A stretch of DNA of 62,740 bases, filler included, from Globobulimina sp. (lineage: Eukaryota), in assembly GCA_003354225.1 (NCBI GenBank). It is 23 parts of 23 records of this genome, joined end to end, with 100 filler letters (N's around TTAATTAATTAA, not from the genome) between each part and the next. Parts side by side here need not be neighbours in the genome. Positions count along the whole stretch, not along the records: positions 43,730 to 46,360 come from PIVH01005616.1; 22 more parts are not named here. The stretch is one strand, 5' to 3'. A model generated the notes under the pieces. That model was not told the DNA's origin. It was given only the letters and a program-made list of their open reading frames with translations, and searched no databases. How positions within the stretch are numbered: the first letter of the stretch is position 1; the number at the start of each line of letters is the position of its first letter. The position numbers and the translations under genes are program-made. Below are positions 10,713-46,460 of the stretch, piece after piece.

Positions 10713-11169
10713 TTAGTTAAACTCTTAAGTCAAGTAATACGCAAAAAGATATAACATTAATTTATAAAAAAATTGACTTTGGCCAACATATTATGGCGGC
10801 GAGAAAGAGAATAAAAAGCCGTCATATATTACGGCGNNNNNNNNNNNNNNNNNNNNNNNNNNNNNNNNNNNNNNNNNNNNTTAATTAATTAANNNNNNNN
10901 NNNNNNNNNNNNNNNNNNNNNNNNNNNNNNNNNNNNAGGGAGTATTGGAGGAGAGGAGGAGTATCAAAATTTAGTAACAATAACCAAAGAGGGAGAGGAG
11001 GATACGGCAGAGGAGGAAACCAAAGAGGTAGAGGAAGAGGATGGAGATATTAAAACAAACCATAAAAATGCTTGTCTTTTTAGTTTGTTTTGTCCGGTAA
11101 GGAAATATTTGATTTTTAAATGTGATAATAAAAACACATTTTAATTACATAATTTAATTTCATTTTTTT

Positions 11170-13167
11170 TTGCAATTCCATAAACAGATATCACGCGACA
11201 GAAAGTTTTTAGCCTCAGACAAAGCTTTAGAAAAAGACCCAGTCATAAAAAATTTCCTAAAAAAATGGAAAGAAGAAAGACCACAGAAAGAGCCACCAAG
11301 ATGGCCGCTAAACGCAGATTTATGGGAAACGCTTTTAGAAAATAACCCGTGCTCCGACAAAAACGTTTTCATAAAACAATTAAGAGAGGGCATGGATTTG
11401 ACAAAGGATAAAAAGATAGAATGCGATCAAGGGAAGGAATCGTATAAATTAACATTGAAAGAGTGGCGTTTTGTGTGTGAAAAAGTAGATGACTACAGAA
11501 GCAAAGAAAAAAATTGTGTCTGGGGGGCCTTCACAAAAAACGACCTAAAAGAGAACCCGGCTTTGGAAGGGCATAGAATTATGCCACATTTTATCGCATA
11601 CAAAATCAGAGATGATGGTACTGAAAAGCTGCGAGTCGTAACGGACGCATCGACCAAAGGAGAGAGTGGCAGATCTTTCAACGACAACGTAGAAACAGAC
11701 GAATCTAATTTAAAATATACACACATATATGATATAATACTAATGATAGTCACAGCAGGTTTGGTATGGCTGGTAATGGCAGACGCAGTCAATGCCTTTA
11801 ACAGAGTACCAATAAATAAGAAATATGTCAAATATTTTGGCATAAAAATAGCCCAATTTGTATTCTTTTGGACATGCGTAGTTTTTGGAGGATCGTCAAG
11901 CTGCAGAGTCTATTCATGGTTCGCAGCGTACGTAGTTTGGATAATAATATATCATAATAAGAAACTATTCATTATAAACAATATAAATGTACTAAAAAAC
12001 TATTTGGATGATTTCATAGCTGGACATCCAACATATTATGGAGCCTGGCTACAATATTACACTTTGTTGGCTTGGTTTGCAATCCTTGGCATTCCGACAC
12101 AGATAAAAAAAATGCAAATACCAACGAGAGTAATAAAATATATCGGATACACAATAAATACGATCGATAGATCACTAATGATGCCAACAGATAAATTATT
12201 AAAAATATGTAGATTGGGGCACGAAATAATACATTTAATAGATACGAAACAGAAAATAAAGGTTCAAATGATACAATCTTTTGATGGCAGCACACGTTTC
12301 GCGTCACCTATATATTATTATTTTGCTCCATTTTTGAGAAATATGGAGGAAGCCATAAGAGGCAAAGACAAAAACGAAAAGGTTTGGGGGAATCAGGAGA
12401 TCAAAAAGGACATTGAATTGATCATAAACACCATAAAAGACACAAACAGAAACAAAGTATCCTGGGAATGGCTGCTTTACCCAAAAGACAAAGGAGATAT
12501 AGTCGCTGAAACAGACGCGTCTGGAAAATTCGGTATGGGCGGTCTAGAAAAGAAAAGCGGAGGAATCTGTTTTATGGTAAGATATCAAGACATAATTGGA
12601 TGGGACACAGAGAACGAACCGGACATAGTTTGGAAGGAACTCTGTGCAGTTTATATAATCAATAAATTGCAGAGCAAAGCATGGGCCAATAAGGCGATTC
12701 TAATAAAAGTCGACAACAAAGCCGTCGAACACATACTGATTAAGAAAAAGTCATGTTTTGAGAGGAAAGATTTGCAGGTTTTAGTCAGGGAAATATGCAA
12801 AGAATTAATGCACTCAAACTACTATGAATGGGTGAATTGGATATCGACGAAGGCAAATATTTACGCGGATGGGCTATCGAGAGGAGATTGGACAATTTTA
12901 AATGAATTGACATACGATTTGGTGGACAAAAGCGATGAGGCTCTCGTATACGCGCAGGAGGCTTGGAATTTGTATAAAAATACTCGAAAACGAATGATAC
13001 GAAGCAATAATGAATCTAAAATATGTAATTGCAAAAATAAATGGATGTGCAAGGATCAAACGCTTTATCCCAAATGGAAAAGCAATAGACATTCTAATCA
13101 GTTTCATCATTGTAATAATCAACATAAACAACATTCTAATTGTCCCAATAATATTGTTGGAATATAA
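11170..13167 (+). CDS. Reverse transcriptase + RNase H of DIRS-type element
   Basis: RT: KLRVVTDAS, DAVNAFNRVP, FGGSSSC, YLDDF, YIGY. RNase H: ETDASGKFGMGG, IVWKELCAV, VDNKAV, WISTKANIYADGLSR. Confidence 0.9.
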   Translation: MQFHKQISRDRKFLASDKALEKDPVIKNFLKKWKEERPQKEPPRWPLNADLWETLLENNPCSDKNVFIKQLREGMDLTKDKKIECDQGKESYKLTLKEWRFVCEKVDDYRSKEKNCVWGAFTKNDLKENPALEGHRIMPHFIAYKIRDDGTEKLRVVTDASTKGESGRSFNDNVETDESNLKYTHIYDIILMIVTAGLVWLVMADAVNAFNRVPINKKYVKYFGIKIAQFVFFWTCVVFGGSSSCRVYSWFAAYVVWIIIYHNKKLFIINNINVLKNYLDDFIAGHPTYYGAWLQYYTLLAWFAILGIPTQIKKMQIPTRVIKYIGYTINTIDRSLMMPTDKLLKICRLGHEIIHLIDTKQKIKVQMIQSFDGSTRFASPIYYYFAPFLRNMEEAIRGKDKNEKVWGNQEIKKDIELIINTIKDTNRNKVSWEWLLYPKDKGDIVAETDASGKFGMGGLEKKSGGICFMVRYQDIIGWDTENEPDIVWKELCAVYIINKLQSKAWANKAILIKVDNKAVEHILIKKKSCFERKDLQVLVREICKELMHSNYYEWVNWISTKANIYADGLSRGDWTILNELTYDLVDKSDEALVYAQEAWNLYKNTRKRMIRSNNESKICNCKNKWMCKDQTLYPKWKSNRHSNQFHHCNNQHKQHSNCPNNIVGI

Positions 13168-20416: not shown

Positions 20417-20674
20417 AGATATTTTACTTCAATTACATCCTCTTTAAATTCTTGTTTATTGTCATATAACTTTAAGTATTATCATCTTGTTGATATTATA
20501 AAGCAGTATGTAGCCATGATTGTTCAGTATACCCATTAAATACATGATTGTTCAGTAATGCTGGATTATGTAATTATGATTTTACAAAAATAGATTGTAT
20601 TTTTATACAACAGATACAAAAATAGATTTTACACTAAGATTTTCGAAGTATTAAAGTGCTCTTCAGTTACTACA

Positions 20675-21675
20675 ATGACAAGCCAAGATAAACAAGAATG
20701 CAAAACAAACACAAAATACAAAGGATTTGACACCACAACAATCCATGCCGCACAGAAACCAAACCCGATACATGGCGCAGTAATGCCTGGCATTGAATTG
20801 GCAACAACCTATGCACAAGAATCACCAGGTGTACATCGTGGATTTGAATATTCACGAACAAGAAATCCAACCCGCGAAGTCTTGCAAAATTTAATCGCAG
20901 CGGTTGAAACAGCTAAATACGGCTTATGTTTCGCATCGGGTTCTGCTGCCACTGCCAGTGTTACGTCCATTTTACGCACTGGAGATCACATCGTATGCAT
21001 CGATGATGTTTATGGCGGCACAAATAGGTATGTTATAATCTACAAACTTCATAGAAACATATCATACAAACTCGCTAATTATATATATAAAAAATATTCG
21101 TTTCTAGATATTTTACAAACATTGCAGTCAAAGTGAATGGAATGAAGCTATCTTTTGTAGAATTATCAGGTTCGAATGGCGCAGATAATTTGCAAGCGTT
21201 TCTCAATAAATGTGATGCAAATAATAAAGTCAAAATGATATGGATAGAAACACCAACAAATCCAATGTTGAAATGTGTGGATATTGAAAGAATATGTTTG
21301 GTGGCACATAAATATGATATTATTGTCTGTGTTGACAATACATTTGCAACGCCTTACAATCAACAACCACTCACATTTGGTGCAGACATTGTGGTTCATT
21401 CAATCACCAAATATTTAAATGGCCACAGTGATGTTGTAATGGGCGTTGCTTTGACAAATAACGAATCATTACGTGACAAGTTAGCATTTGTTCAGAACAG
21501 CATCGGTGCGGTGCCCTCGCCATTTGATTGTTATATGGTTATCAGAGGAATGAAGACATTGCATTTAAGAATGGCGAGACATGCTGAAAACGCCTTGATT
21601 GTAGCAAAGTGGTTAGAAAAACACCCAAAGATCTCCCGAGTGTATTATCCGCATTTAGCGTCCCATCCGGATTAT
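20675..21675 (+). CDS. CTH: Cystathionine gamma-lyase (spliced; C-terminus lost at a chimeric junction)
   Basis: FEYSRTRNPTR, DDVYGGTNR|YF (intron 21028-21107), WIETPTNP, VDNTF, HSITKYLNGHSDV (PLP lysine), RGMKTLHLRM. Confidence 0.9.
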
Positions 21676-21770
21676 AAAATTTCAATTTCCCATTCGAATG
21701 AATATGCCGCCGCAGGACTTTGTACGAACCCTGAGGTTGTTTTGGGGATTGATATTGAAAAAATCGTATC
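21676..21770 (+). CDS. Fragment of a bacterial-type 4'-phosphopantetheinyl transferase (chimeric end)
   Basis: ISISHSNEYAAAG..LGIDIEKI is the Sfp/AcpS-family SxSHS..GIDIE motif and is unrelated to the CGL C-terminus. Confidence 0.65.
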
Positions 21771-22237
21771 NNNNNNNNNNNNNNNNNNNNNNNNNNNNNN
21801 NNNNNNNNNNNNNNTTAATTAATTAANNNNNNNNNNNNNNNNNNNNNNNNNNNNNNNNNNNNNNNNNNNNAGTTTTTCTGACCTTTGCTGTTAAACAATT
21901 GCGTACAAAAAAATTGAAATCGTGCAAATGGAAAGTGACATTACGTGGTGATATTGCAGTTTATATGGAATGTATAGAAATAGCATTGGAGGAATGTATT
22001 GTGGTGATAGAGACTCTTTATTCTGGTGAAGATCTAAAATGGCGGCAACCATTATTGCAAAAGTTATCAAACAAATATAAACTGCATTGGCAAGACAGTT
22101 TGTCATTTTCTATCAGAAAAATAAAGTTGCAATAATAATAATGATGGATGATTTTTATTCTGCGCCATTTAAGGCATTTTTCAAATTAAAATTTAGACTT
22201 TTGAGACACTCCTAAATAAAGAGCTCACCTAAATAAT

Positions 22238-30069: not shown

Positions 30070-32670
30070 AAATAAACCGCTGTTGTGACGATGTATTAAC
30101 AACTTTTATAACTGACATACAAACTTCATTTGATATGGTCAGTGATACGGATGTGGTTTTTACCGATTTTTCAAAAGCGTATGATAGTGTGTGGCATAAT
30201 GGATTAATTTATAAATTGATAAAAAATAACATCAAAGGAAATATATTGAATGTTTTAGCCTCGTTCATACAAACTCGTTTTACAAAAGTTATAGCTAAAA
30301 AAGCAGAGTCAAATTGGGTGGCACAACCAATTGGTGTCCCTCAAGGATCTGCTCTCTCCCCTATACTATATATAATTTTTACAAATGATTTCAATCTACA
30401 ATTCCCGAATTTGTCCACTTTGCGTGCTTTGCAGATGATACTGCATTTTGGACAAGTCCAGGCACAAAAGACCCTCTCCGATACAAATTCCTCCAAAAAG
30501 AGCTTGATAATTTCAGTAATTGGTGTGATAAATGGCAACTTATAATTAATCCATCCAAATGCGCTTCGATGAATTTTTCTCATGGAAATCCTATGAAATA
30601 CTATCCTAAATACACAATTAAAATTGACTCAATTTCGCATAAACCCAATAAAATAAGTAAATACAATATCCATTCTATTCCAATCCAATACGAGATGTCT
30701 GCCAGATATCTGGGACTATGGTTTGATGAGAAACTTAATTTTAATGCTCATTTCGACAAAATTAAAGCCAAAACAATGCGTAGCTTCTGGCGATTATACT
30801 TTACTATTAAATCTGGAATAAAATTGACACCGTTATCCATTGCTATCCTCTACAAATCTTTAGCGAGATCCAGAATTGAGTTTGGATTAACTCATTACTT
30901 CCCGTATGACTCTAAAAATATACTTAGAACTCTCCAAAATAAATTCCTCCGATTGGCGATTCCATGTCGGTTAGATACACCTTATAAGAGCCCATTACCT
31001 CACCATGCGACAGCTCGCCAGAGCATACTACAATGATTCGTATCATCCATTGCATAAAACATATAATGCCTTATTAAAATACCAAACAACAATACAAAGT
31101 CATAAATATAGAAGAAATAATAAAAACAAACCAAATAAATATGTAAATTTGAATAAAAACCCACTAATAATTGCGTCCAAAGCCTGTCAAAATGACTCCC
31201 AAATAAAAGCATTAACTCAGAGATTTGAAACAATGAATAAAAGCCAAGTCACAGCCTCCCCTACGTATAACTTACGAACTCTCCCAACAAATTATGCTGT
31301 AATCCTTTCTCCCGCAACCCCCTCAATTCCAACTGATAAACTAATAACAATCTCATTTACAGATGGTTCATGTGACCATAATCCAGGCAAAGGAGGATCT
31401 GCAGCTTATATCCCCTCCCAAACATCACAAGAAACGCAATTCAAAAAAGTATATTTCTTTAAAATCCCAGTCACGATTACAACGGCAGAAATTGAGGCAA
31501 TCCATTTAATGATTGATTTCATTCTAAACTGTCCCAATAATGACGAAATCCATTACAAAATATATGTTGATAACTTACCGGTGCTCCAATTCATAAACGG
31601 ACTAAATTATCCACGATATAATGACACAAAAATAATAATTGAGAATATATTTATAAAACTCCTCCAAATCCAACATAATAAACCTAATATTTTTGTAACA
31701 TTCATCAAAATAAAATCACATAATAATCATGAATTTAATGATGAAGTGGATAAATTGGCAAACTTTGCAGCAAAACATACAAAGTTTGACCCAAACTTAT
31801 ATAATGAAATTACATATAATACGACAATTACGCAATTACATAAACAGATTAGATTCAAATGGAGCGAAAAATGGGCGAATAGAAACACGAAATCGACACA
31901 AGACAGCTACAAAATGTATAATAATAACCCAACCCTTCATAATAAATTAAACAGAATAACCAAATACTTAAATAAAGATGAATCAGCAATGTTAAATAGA
32001 ATAATTTCGGGCCACATTGAGTTAAATGCATTTTTATATAAACATAAATTTACAGATACTGATAAGTCTATTATTGAATCCCCGAATTGTAATAACTGTA
32101 ATTTAAATAAAAAAGAATCCATATTTCACTATTTTGTAAAATGTCCCAAATATTCTAACCAAAGACAACGACTAATGAATTCACTCAAATCAATATGGAA
32201 TGGATTTAATAATGGAGGCCGTGTGTATTTAGATGAGTTATTCTATCCATACACTATTAGACGACCTCCAGACATTGAGAGAGAGCTAGATATAGCCACT
32301 CAAGTAGAAATTTGGAAAAAACTTCTTCAATTTATTAAAGAAACTAAAAGATTCAGCTTCCTGTACCAAGTAGATCTAATGAATTTATCTCCGATCATTT
32401 CGGATTAGGAAACTATTGTACAATTTGTACTACTGTAGTTCCAAATATTTTTATTTACCTTTGTTCATTGGTCTCATCCCCAAATAAAAGGGCCTATATC
32501 CTTGTTTTGTGTGTATACTATTTAATTAGTGTTCCCTTCTTGTGTATAAGGTGGAATCTTTAATTGATTTCTTAGTGTTTTAAAGAAAAAAAAAAAAAAA
32601 AAATCTTAAAAACAAATGTAAATCCAAAAAAAAAAAAAAAATAAAATAAAAAAAAAAAAAAAAAAAAAAA

Positions 32671-43629: not shown

Positions 43630-43729
43630 NNNNNNNNNNNNNNNNNNNNNNNNNNNNNNNNNNNNNNNNNNNNTTAATTAATTAANNNNNNNNNNNNNNN
43701 NNNNNNNNNNNNNNNNNNNNNNNNNNNNN

Positions 43730-43950
43730 CTGGTCGTAGCGTTTTGGCCTTCGCTTCCGCCGATGTCAGTTTGGCTTGGGCTAACGCCTCTCGTGCTTCG
43801 GCCAAGGCGATTTCTGCATCGTTCAATTCTGTTTCTTTACTAAATTACAAAATTGTGCATAATATCTGTTTAATTTAAAATACTGTGGCAGTACCTGGAT
43901 AAGTCCGAATTTTGTGACTTGTGGTCATTGTTCTGGGCAGAATCAGCCAT
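43730..43950 (-). CDS. Hypothetical coiled-coil protein, 5' part (one 55-nt intron, 43840-43894)
   Basis: Spliced translation MADSAQNNDHKSQNSDLS|SKETELNDAEIALAEAREALAQAKLTSAEAKAKTLRP; canonical GT..AG. Confidence 0.6.
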
Positions 43951-44106
43951 CGATTTCGATATGTATTATTATTAACCGTCTCATCGAATATGGGCAATTA
44001 CTTTATCGGACAAGCAGGTAGTATAACAAATTTGGTTACTGTAGTTTTTCGCGCCAAAGTTTATATTTTTAAATCATAATGTAAGAACAAAAAAGATCGA
44101 ACATCA

Positions 44107-44610
44107 CTATTTCCCACGAATTCGTAAAGCTAGTTTCATATCCCTCGACTTCACAGTTTCTCTGTTGTTTACAGTAGCGCACAAGTTGGCGTCTTGAAAT
44201 ACTTCAACCAAATAGGATTCGGTCGCGTCCTAAAAAATATGTCTGTTCCAGTTTACCCTTAAATGAATTTATAAAAAAGTACTGCACCTGCAACGCGAGA
44301 ATAGCTTTTGCTTGAAATCGACATTTGGTTGGATAGTTTTGGGCTATTTCTTTCACCAAACGTAAAAATGGTCCTTTCTTAATTAACTTTTCGGTGGACT
44401 TTTGATAACGTCGGATTTCCCTTAGTGCGACGGTTCCTGCAAATTACAACCTTTCCGAAATTATATAATTCAAGTCAAAGTCACATTCGTACCTGGTCTG
44501 TATCGATGACCTTTCCTTTTATCGTTTACAATAGACTTGCCTGGGGCAGTTTTATGGCCCACTACCATATTTGGTTTAGTATGATCCATTAAAGGTACTA
44601 ACGAAGCCAT
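44107..44610 (-). CDS. Divergent histone H3 variant (129 aa, three exons)
   Basis: Exons 44610-44493, 44436-44288 and 44229-44107; introns of 56 and 58 nt. Translation [129 protein letters not shown]. Confidence 0.95.
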
Positions 44611-44701
44611 ATTTGATATCAAACAGATATCTATAACGTTCAAAAAGTGGTACTGAATCAAAAAATAATTACTATTTCTTCACTTACTTTTTTTAAATCG
44701 A

Positions 44702-44706
44702 CCAAT
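44702..44706. promoter_or_regulatory. Possible CCAAT box upstream of the H3 gene
   Basis: ACCAATCAG about 90 nt upstream of the H3 ATG. Confidence 0.35.
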
Positions 44707-44809
44707 CAGCGACGAGCAGACAGTCTTAGGACATTACGTAATCGATTTCGTAATATATTATAATAGACGCACAGACCCATTTATAAATATTTCATTCGGT
44801 ATACCTTGT

Positions 44810-45220
44810 TTATATTACTTTAGGCAACAAAGTTATAGGATTAATCGTCAGACCTTTAGATATCTCGTGTTCTTTCAAAACTTGGGTCAAATAGGGACCA
44901 AGTAATGTCAAAAGTTCACAATTTTTCAATAACAATTGTCTACTGACATCGATTCGGGTTTTGATGGGATATTTGGCTTTGTTAGCTTCCTTTAAATTTA
45001 CAAACAATTCTTTATATTTCGTCAAATTTGTGAACAATCTTTTATTTCTACTCAACAATTTCCCGCTGCTGATCAATCGAATAATTTTAACCAAAATTCG
45101 AATCAATTTATCGTCAGTTTCAATAATAAACGATCGCCTTTCGTCCTTTGTTTCTAATTCGGAAATGCTAGTAAGAATTTCCACAACTTTGTCTCCGTTA
45201 GTTTTAAAATCGAAAACCAT
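44810..45220 (-). CDS. Small basic helical protein resembling a conserved Polinton/adintovirus ORF
   Basis: ERRSFIIETDDKLIRILVKIIRLISSGKL..LTKYKELFVNL..RQLLLKNCELLTLLGPYLTQVL follows the pattern RK..L..A...LI..ICE...N.L.G.......L.K.K..LR.L...K..L.Q.GGFL..LL.P.L of Polinton small proteins. Recognised from memory; the GGF motif is absent. Confidence 0.5.
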   Translation of the reverse strand: MVFDFKTNGDKVVEILTSISELETKDERRSFIIETDDKLIRILVKIIRLISSGKLLSRNKRLFTNLTKYKELFVNLKEANKAKYPIKTRIDVSRQLLLKNCELLTLLGPYLTQVLKEHEISKGLTINPITLLPKVI

Positions 45221-45839
45221 ATTTAAATTCCACCAATTGATACAAACCGAAGGGTTTCAACACAAAAAAATACTTTAGATCAGTGATTCATTTCCGAATT
45301 AGTTGTACCGGTGCCAAGTCGATAAACCAGTGACATCTAACTGAATTGTTTCAGTCGCTTCAAGTACGCCTACGCAAGTATACTGTTATTATTTTATGTT
45401 TCAATCCACAAAAATATCAAAGAACCAAAATAAAGAACCAAAATTTATAATAAAGAAATAAAAATTCCCATCACCAAAATAAAATATCTAAAAGTAAAAA
45501 ATCATTTTTTGTGGGTCAGGCCCATCTATGGTAACTATTAACACTATTACTACTATTAGTACTGTAAGTACTATAATAGTTATTGTAAAAAATCATAGTG
45601 TTTATAGCAAATCTGGATAATATATTTTGTGGTGTTCTAATATTATTGTGGTCACTTAGTTTAATATAATCAATTGGGTACATCATGTGTGTACATCTGT
45701 GCCCACAAGTACCCACATGTACCCACATGCACCCAAACAAAATAATGACCCACAAATATAGTTATATACCAATCCATGTAGAGCTATGCCCACAAGTATA
45801 GCCATGTGTCCACAAGTACCCAACCTATGTATATCTGTG

Positions 45840-46270
45840 CCCACCAGTCCCATTTACGTGTCCACTTATACCCACAGCTCCATTTAGGTGTCCACCTGAG
45901 CCCATCTGCCCCATTTATAGTGTCCACCAGTGTCCACCAGTCCCATTTAGGTGTCCACTGGTGCCCACCAGCCCCATATAGGTGTCCACTGGTTCCCACC
46001 AGTCCCATTTACGTGGCCACTGGTGCCCACCAGCCCCATTTAGCCCCATTTACGTGTCCACTGATGCCCACCAGCCCCATTTACGTGTCCACTTGTACCC
46101 TGAGCCCTCCAGCCCCATTTACGTGTCCACCGGTGCCCACCAGCCCCCATTTACGTGTCCACCGGTGCCCACCAGCCCCATTTACGTGTCCACTGGTGCC
46201 CACCGGTCCCATTTACGTGTCCACTGGTGCCCACCAGCCCCACTTACGAGTCCACTGGTGCCCACCAGGG
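45840..46270. repeat. 31-bp GC-rich tandem repeat, about 13 copies
   Basis: Consensus CCAGCCCCATTTACGTGTCCACTGGTGCCCA. Degenerate related sequence from about 45675; copies more uniform toward the right. Confidence 0.95.
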
Positions 46271-46460
46271 GCCCACGAGTCGTGTAGCCTAGGCCTCAAT
46301 ATACTACTATCTCCATACAAAACCATGACACCTGAGCAATGGGAAACATATAAAGAATGGNNNNNNNNNNNNNNNNNNNNNNNNNNNNNNNNNNNNNNNN
46401 NNNNTTAATTAATTAANNNNNNNNNNNNNNNNNNNNNNNNNNNNNNNNNNNNNNNNNNNN

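Follow-up and report, generated by a model that had tools for sequence, protein, structure and literature searches.

A spliced histone H3 variant gene with a replaced tail and substituted H3-H3' interface residues in Globobulimina sp.

Among the contigs of the Globobulimina sp. assembly GCA_003354225.1, we examined a stretch of 62,740 nucleotides (nt) in which 23 contigs are joined end to end, referred to here as the window. One of these contigs, PIVH01005616.1 (2.6 kb, 43730..46360), carries a three-exon gene on the minus strand that encodes a divergent histone H3, which we call H3v for H3 variant. The contigs of the window are 2629-2634 nt long and sorted by length, and neighboring blocks are not physically linked. 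Each spacer between them (e.g. 43630..43729) consists of 44 N, a 12-base linker with stops in all frames, and a further 44 N, and the genuine context of H3v is the 2.6-kb contig only. The gene runs from 44610 to 44107 and has a coding sequence (CDS) of 390 nt that translates to 129 amino acids (aa), ending two residues short of canonical H3 at the C-terminus. Three stop-to-stop open reading frames (ORFs), of 69, 79, and 40 aa, split the gene between them. A first-pass annotation of the window had proposed this spliced model, and its coordinates proved exact, with both GT..AG introns restoring a gapless H3 register. The start codon, the stop codon, all four splice signals, and the 129-codon frame are intact. 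The ATG has an A at -3 and a G at +4, and the GC content of the CDS (41%) stands in contrast to that of the introns (28-32%) and flanks (30-31%). A CCAAT box and an A/T-rich run lie roughly 80-95 nt ahead of the ATG and may serve as promoter elements.

Table 1. Features of the H3v gene and its neighbors on contig PIVH01005616.1, in window positions; residue positions here and throughout are Met-less
Feature	Position	Strand	Description
Exon 1	44493..44610	minus	ATG at 44610; 39-residue new tail and first base of the G44 codon
Intron 1	44437..44492	minus	56 nt; GT..AG; phase 1, within the G44 codon after its first base; 32% GC
Exon 2	44288..44436	minus	G44-Q93: alphaN, alpha1, loop 1, first half of alpha2
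Intron 2	44230..44287	minus	58 nt; GT..AG; phase 0, between Q93 and residue 94; 28% GC
Exon 3	44107..44229	minus	residues 94-133: second half of alpha2, loop 2, alpha3, TAG; carries V113 and N114
Putative CCAAT box	44702..44706	plus (inverted relative to the gene)	about -92 from the H3v ATG; sequence reading, putative role
Putative TATA-like A/T-rich run	44687..44698		promoter side of H3v; sequence reading, putative role
Downstream neighbor gene	43730..43950	minus	ATG at 43950; 55-nt GT..AG intron at 43894..43840; runs off the contig end
Upstream neighbor ORF	44813..45256	minus	148 aa; ends about 200 nt before the H3v ATG; 0 Pfam families at E <= 1e-5

Both fold-encoding exons are independently recognizable as histone. 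The Pfam Histone family (PF00125, cut-off 26.4 bits) matches exon 2 at 48 bits (E 1.8e-12) and exon 3 at 41.5 bits, while the tail exon alone has no Pfam match. The best PDB matches to exon 2 are H3 throughout, and the top matches overall are H3 or the centromeric H3 variant, CenH3. Against a profile built from 36 canonical H3 proteins, retrieved with the exon-2 ORF from a large protein collection, spliced H3v aligns without a gap over profile positions 30-134 (H3 residues 29-133) at 154.5 bits. Because this gapless alignment extends across the exons, both splice junctions restore the H3 register, far beyond what chance would produce, and this is the strongest internal support for the gene model. 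H3v is a genuine spliced gene of the H3 family with a replaced tail.

Divergence is spread unevenly along the protein. H39-E59 is identical to the canonical consensus at all 21 positions, and identity is 37/49 over exon 2 but 20/40 over exon 3. Over the whole fold, 57 of 89 positions (64%) match the consensus and 32 differ; loop 1 and alpha2 together match at 23/40 and differ at the other 17. The substitutions that had been read from the translation (Q68L, K79P, KAIL at 87-90, T107A, H113V, and K115N) all appear in the profile alignment, as do the kept K56, F84, C110, and D123 and a loop 1 of normal length (delta 0). Further changes include L60K, L65G, G102E, I112T, A114N, V117E, M120K, P121S, K122R, and R128L. 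Also kept are R49, R83, I89, R116, T118, L126, and I130.

The N-terminal tail bears little resemblance to that of H3. Its net charge is +6, against +14 in the canonical tail, profile positions 2-11 are left unaligned, and the canonical tail motifs are absent from all six frames of the H3v contig. These results uphold the proposal that the tail lacks the K4 and K9 context. The K27-like KTAP motif that had been pointed out is present as the single K[ST]AP match of the tail, at residue 20, and a match of this kind arises in 0.34% of tail shuffles; pairing it with K27, however, requires a three-residue shift from the gapless alignment. That alignment sets R32 and K33 of H3v opposite K36 and K37, and places I at position 31, without an equivalent of S31.

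To gauge whether neutral decay could leave a fold of this quality, we started from 34 metagenomic H3 genes without introns, which stood in for the ancestor, and subjected their fold codons to random, AT-biased substitution with transitions favored 2:1. The 4000 runs used substitutions only, without indels, and were halted at 62% fold identity. In 560 of them (14%) the frame remained free of stops, and these stop-free products had H3 profile scores of 97.1 +/- 6.0 bits, none of them above 115.9. The H3v fold scores 131.3 bits, a value that 0/560 reach. The substitutions in H3v are much more conservative than those expected under neutral decay, there are no indels relative to H3 over profile positions 30-134, the 21-residue block is unchanged, and the composition of exons and introns remains distinct. 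These observations argue that the fold has been under purifying selection for the greater part of its history, and they leave room for a very recent inactivation.

Two of the changes, H113V and A114N, lie at the H3-H3' interface. We surveyed 175 H3-family sequences, comprising 102 from the exon-2 protein search and 73 divergent representatives. V113 occurs in none of the 175 and N114 in one, and K60 and P79 are likewise found in none. Among the 73 divergent representatives D123 is invariant and H113 is kept in 66. In the cited passages, H113 is described as hydrogen-bonding C110 and D123 across the interface and packing on A114, R116, K122, and L126 (PMC6795475). H113A and A114Y are reported there as lethal in budding yeast when the mutant protein is the sole H3 (PMC3017104), H113D as destabilizing both (H3-H4)2 and mixed tetramers in the fission yeast S. 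pombe (PMC6795475), and H3.3-H113A as serving as a tetramerization mutant in human cells (PMC3589533). H113A, H113D, and A114Y all weaken the interface (PMC3017104, PMC6795475). Yeast with H113N or H113Y are described as viable though slow-growing, while tetramers with H113A, H113N, or H113Y lose copper binding in vitro (bioRxiv 10.1101/350652). These engineered mutants alter the same two positions of the four-helix bundle that are altered in H3v (PMC3017104, PMC6795475, PMC3589533, bioRxiv 10.1101/350652). In contrast to them, the change in H3v is natural, joins V113 to N114, and sits in an otherwise constrained gene; no mutant described in the cited passages has valine at 113 or asparagine at 114. 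Given the rarity of V113 and N114 and the published phenotypes at these near-invariant positions, the suggestion of an altered H3-H3' interface is well founded. A block of tetramer formation does not follow from it, as the viability of H113N and H113Y yeast indicates.

We searched three large collections for relatives and found no ortholog and no second copy of H3v in any of them. Against a collection of 5.8 billion proteins, the exon-2 ORF has 562 matches, the best at 78% identity over exon 2, a value typical of ordinary H3, and no protein in that collection has three 5-mers in common with exon 3. Among metagenome contigs the exon-2 ORF finds at least 528 relatives, the best 80 of which are 56-76% identical and are ordinary H3; the tail ORF gives 515 pattern matches there and 0 relatives. 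Exon 3 has 497 matches at E <= 1e-3 among 1.84 billion cluster representatives, none above about 65% identity to spliced H3v over the fold, in a set clustered at 50% identity, so that an ortholog could hide inside an H3 cluster. The best fold identity among all retrieved sequences is 60/89.

Phylogeny had been proposed as a check on the affinity of H3v. From the 270 retrieved sequences, 95 with multiple or incomplete domains were removed before tree building, and the tree covers 95 fold columns of 92 sequences: H3v, 71 divergent representatives, and 20 sequences drawn at random from the filtered proteins of the exon-2 search. The closest partner of H3v is P0213, a 154-aa representative that joins it with an SH-like support of 0.93 in the full 165-row FastTree but in 39 of 100 FastTree bootstrap replicates of the 92 sequences. 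H3v is sister to a long-loop representative of the S/W/A type in 2 of the 100 replicates, and its placement in the tree is poorly supported. P0213 has A107, T112, N114, N115, M124, and a normal loop 1, as H3v does; unlike H3v it has Q68, H113, and a recognizable canonical-type tail (ARVKQTARKT), and it is 62% identical over 98 residues. Another divergent H3-like representative, P0153, shares L68, the 86-89 segment, T96, A107, M124, and L128 with H3v. Neither P0153 nor P0213 pairs robustly with H3v in the tree.

The exon structure offers a further view of ancestry. We surveyed intron positions in the H3 genes of the best 80 metagenome loci, of which 77 cover the fold. Fifty-two of these 77 are unsplit, and 23 introns could be placed exactly: at P38 in phase 0 (4), at R42 in phase 2 (4), at G44 in phase 1 (3), at the Q93/E94 boundary in phase 0 (3), and at other positions (9). 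Intron 2 of H3v shares its position and phase with the introns of three of the 77 genes (L020, L027, and L036), all of which encode AAIG at 87-90; S31 is visible in two of them, those with covered tails. Intron 1 belongs to the G44 phase-1 class (L002, L012, and L040), and L002 has its second intron at codon 120 in phase 1. L027 combines the Q93/E94 intron with one at R42 in phase 2, and intron 1 of H3v lies 5 nt from this R42 position. The two-intron arrangement of L027, including the phase-0 intron after Q93, is presumably that of vertebrate H3.3 genes, although we found no confirmation of this in the literature.

No histone stem-loop was found in the window at the Rfam gathering threshold (0 matches), and around H3v (43730..44800) none appears at E <= 10, where four weak, unrelated matches were returned. 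Together with an intron 2 position that, among the surveyed genes, is seen in AAIG-encoding ones only, the lack of a stem-loop makes the suggested H3.3 ancestry plausible, even though intron 1 is not where L027 has it, and H3v plausibly descends, as the most likely origin judged from gene structure, from an intron-bearing H3.3-like gene. In protein sequence H3v does not carry the H3.3 signature, which we take to be S31 with A87, I89, and G90: it has KAIL at 87-90, I at 31, and 57/89 identity over the fold. In gene structure it is of the H3.3 type, with introns, the shared intron 2 position, and no stem-loop. H3v thus resembles H3.3 as an intron-bearing orphan gene without a stem-loop that keeps I89, while H3.3 has few differences from canonical H3 (PMC3156773, in the passage cited) and H3v has 32 changes in 89 fold positions and a new tail. 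The general rule on replacement-type H3 variant genes that we apply is likewise drawn from the cited portion of PMC3156773. H3v does not look like a canonical H3 gene, as it has two introns, non-histone neighbors, and no stem-loop, a comparison that rests on an animal-type criterion and may not apply to this host.

The immediate surroundings of H3v are compact. The downstream neighbor starts about 155 nt past H3v on the same strand, which limits the 3' untranslated region of H3v to less than about 155 nt, and the 55-nt intron of this neighbor is similar in size to the two introns of H3v. Some 1.2 kb upstream of H3v, at the contig end, 45837..46268 holds 13.4 copies of a 31-bp unit in tandem (79% matches), with a higher-order period of 235 bp; the array has a long open frame on the plus strand yet is satellite-like.

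Among sequencing runs, an 827-nt Logan contig of a DNA run, which we call X1, covers 43796..44622 with 0 differences at a depth of 7.3 and probably goes back to the reads used for the assembly. In X1, a low-depth contig that matches the stretch of exon 2 coding for alphaN (at least 80%) has a loose end at 44390 and continues into a canonical alpha1 segment with Q68 (translated by eye). Since this loose-end sequence encodes a canonical alpha1, a canonical-type H3 is present in the X1 sample, in an organism that is unproven. In two other runs, X2 and X3, a trinucleotide-like simple repeat at 45534..45574 is matched by 31-mers at depths of up to 900, and these runs contain nothing else of the H3v contig.

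Elsewhere in the window, the overall GC content is 34% and no rRNA or tRNA was found. The other contigs encode zf-MYND, SAM, ELMO plus FYVE, LMF1, and reverse transcriptase domains. Long ORFs with RVT_1 and RNase H domains at 11158..13164 and 30975..32405, on separate contigs, are probably retroelement fragments. At 20594..21771, a Cys/Met-metabolism pyridoxal phosphate enzyme is divided between two ORFs that overlap and lie in different frames (profile positions 1-120 and 107-295), and this split suggests a further short intron near 21091..21133.

What kind of H3 might this be? The explanation we favor, with about as much doubt as confidence, is that H3v is a functional, lineage-restricted H3 paralog of the replication-independent (replacement) type, a special-purpose variant that is not centromeric. 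Its two introns and its orphan position between unrelated genes are replacement-type features. H3v would still pair with H4 and wrap DNA as H3 does, and the resulting nucleosome would be a different one. With the K4 and K9 context lost from a new, weakly basic tail and K79 replaced by proline, such a particle could not carry those marks. The surface of loop 1 and alpha2, which decides chaperone choice, is altered at 17 of 40 positions, suggesting that H3v would have a deposition route of its own. At the rebuilt H3-H3' contact, H113V and A114N would remove the His113-Asp123' hydrogen bond and the proposed C110/H113 copper site, and this should either weaken tetramer pairing or render it selective. 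As with other H3 variants specific to a lineage, the use of H3v may then be restricted to one life stage or one chromatin domain. Divergent, non-centromeric variants of this lineage-specific kind include H3B of Giardia and H3V of Trypanosoma. As these proteins are generally described, each resembles H3v in being a strongly diverged paralog, distinct from the bulk H3, whose tail is non-canonical and which lacks the full CenH3 signature. The likeness implies no shared ancestry, as such variants arise independently in each lineage.

Several points weigh against this explanation. Pairing with H4 and wrapping of DNA are predicted from sequence alone. A single DNA run (X1) and no RNA run is listed as containing the H3v contig, and the three collections that yielded no ortholog give no support to conservation across species. 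The simulation of neutral decay was run without indels and from stand-in ancestors. The viability of H113N and H113Y yeast means that normal tetramers may accept V113 (bioRxiv 10.1101/350652, as far as the cited passages go). Finally, Q68L, the unalignable tail, and, if position 107 is the diagnostic threonine, T107A are features of the CenH3 type (PMC4359364), and the extension of loop 1 is described as not obligatory in CenH3 (PMC2995078).

These last points bear on another explanation, possible but one we lean away from, in which H3v is the CenH3 of its host, an atypical one with a loop 1 of normal length that a dedicated chaperone would place at centromeres to seed the kinetochore. According to the cited passages, a CenH3 can be diagnosed by its divergent tail, its extended loop 1, and its loss of conserved Q, F, and T residues (PMC4359364, PMC3156773). 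The tail of H3v, which cannot be aligned to H3, fits the first of these, and the replacement of Q68 (Q69 with Met) by L fits the loss of the conserved Q (PMC4359364). Loop 1 and alpha2, the centromere-targeting region, are the part that differs at 17 of 40 positions, and the 64% identity of the fold is near the roughly 50% quoted for CenH3s (PMC3156773). The CenH3/CENP-A family, with members such as Cnp1 and the Dictyostelium CenH3, shares with H3v a divergent tail, a replaced Q68 (and T107, if that is the threonine meant), a fold identity of about 60%, a diverged loop 1 and alpha2, and introns without a stem-loop (PMC4359364, PMC3156773, PMC2995078). The CenH3 of Dictyostelium is a confirmed one and its loop 1 is not extended, so that the extension is not obligatory (PMC2995078, in the part cited). 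As is usual for CenH3 genes, H3v bears introns, lacks a stem-loop, and has no other H3-like ORF beside it in the window, and its short C-terminus is compatible with CenH3 in that the solved S. pombe Cnp1 chain also stops just past the RIRG motif. The third diagnostic threonine we take to be T107, which is A in H3v, with T118 kept; PMC4359364, in the passage cited, instead gives the third diagnostic residue as position 118, and by that count H3v retains it. The two most-used CenH3 features are missing, as loop 1 is unextended and F84 (F85 with Met) is kept (PMC4359364, PMC3156773). The first-pass annotation had taken this pair as evidence against a typical CenH3; both are present, but in view of Q68L, the possibly diagnostic T107A, the tail, and the Dictyostelium example they carry less weight than it gave them. 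H39-E59 is entirely canonical, and the S/W/A long-loop representatives (e.g. P0207, P0209, and P0221) and the solved Cnp1 all keep the H113 that H3v has replaced. The rarity of a long-loop sister in the bootstraps also speaks against CenH3, as a weak point, since CenH3s are not expected to group reliably. A tie of exon 3 between S. pombe Cnp1 (34.1 bits) and H3 (34.2 bits) was dismissed as a CenH3 signal; the C-terminal part of Cnp1 is near-canonical and keeps T107 and H113.

Three further explanations concern the interface itself, a possible inactivation of the gene, and the histones of the lineage in general. We think it unlikely that V113 and N114 together create an H3-H3' contact of a new kind, one in which ordinary H3 is no longer accepted as a partner. 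In one possible form the interface would be self-selective, for example through Asn114-Asn114' across the dyad, and H3v nucleosomes would always be homotypic; in another, H3v-H4 dimers without stable tetramers would act as half-particles or as a chaperone-bound store of H4. Either form would give a particle without the C110/H113 copper site and without the K4, K9, and K79 marking sites, and selection would have preserved H3v as a naturally occurring interface mutant. Very improbable, in our view, is a dead or dying copy whose frame is still open, unexpressed or recently freed of constraint. The failure to find an ortholog in any collection searched agrees with such a copy, as do the unique or near-unique changes at conserved sites (K60, P79, and V113 in 0/175, N114 in 1/175) and the lethality of H113A and A114Y in yeast that have no other H3 (PMC3017104, in the passage cited). 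Against it stand the intact frame, start, stop, and four splice signals, the absence of indels over profile positions 30-134, the unchanged 21-residue block, the retained contrast in composition between CDS and introns, and the simulations, in which 14% of 4000 runs stayed stop-free and 0/560 of those reach the H3v score. We give hardly any credence to the idea that H3v is the bulk, general-purpose H3 of a lineage with unusually diverged histones. It would accord with the absence of any other H3 gene from the 62.7-kb window and with a poorly sampled host, an 804-aa ELMO/FYVE ORF on another contig having only three database relatives at 42-57% identity. The canonical H39-E59 block, however, is ill-suited to a lineage of generally diverged histones, and for a general-purpose H3 it would be extreme to have lost K79 as well as the K4/K9 context. 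H3v also looks like a single-copy, intron-bearing orphan outside any replication-type cluster, and DNA run X1 holds a canonical-type H3 coding piece that includes Q68, at low depth and from an unproven organism.

Lineage-specific H3 variants are common, but the natural replacement of His113 and Ala114 is very rare. These two residues lie at the center of the H3-H3' four-helix bundle and of the proposed copper-reductase site. Should H3v instead turn out to be the CenH3 of its host, it would join the Dictyostelium protein as a second case in which loop 1 is not extended. If H3v is expressed, it would serve as a natural test case for two questions: how far a working H3 can do without this interface, and whether a histone can be made to pair only with itself.

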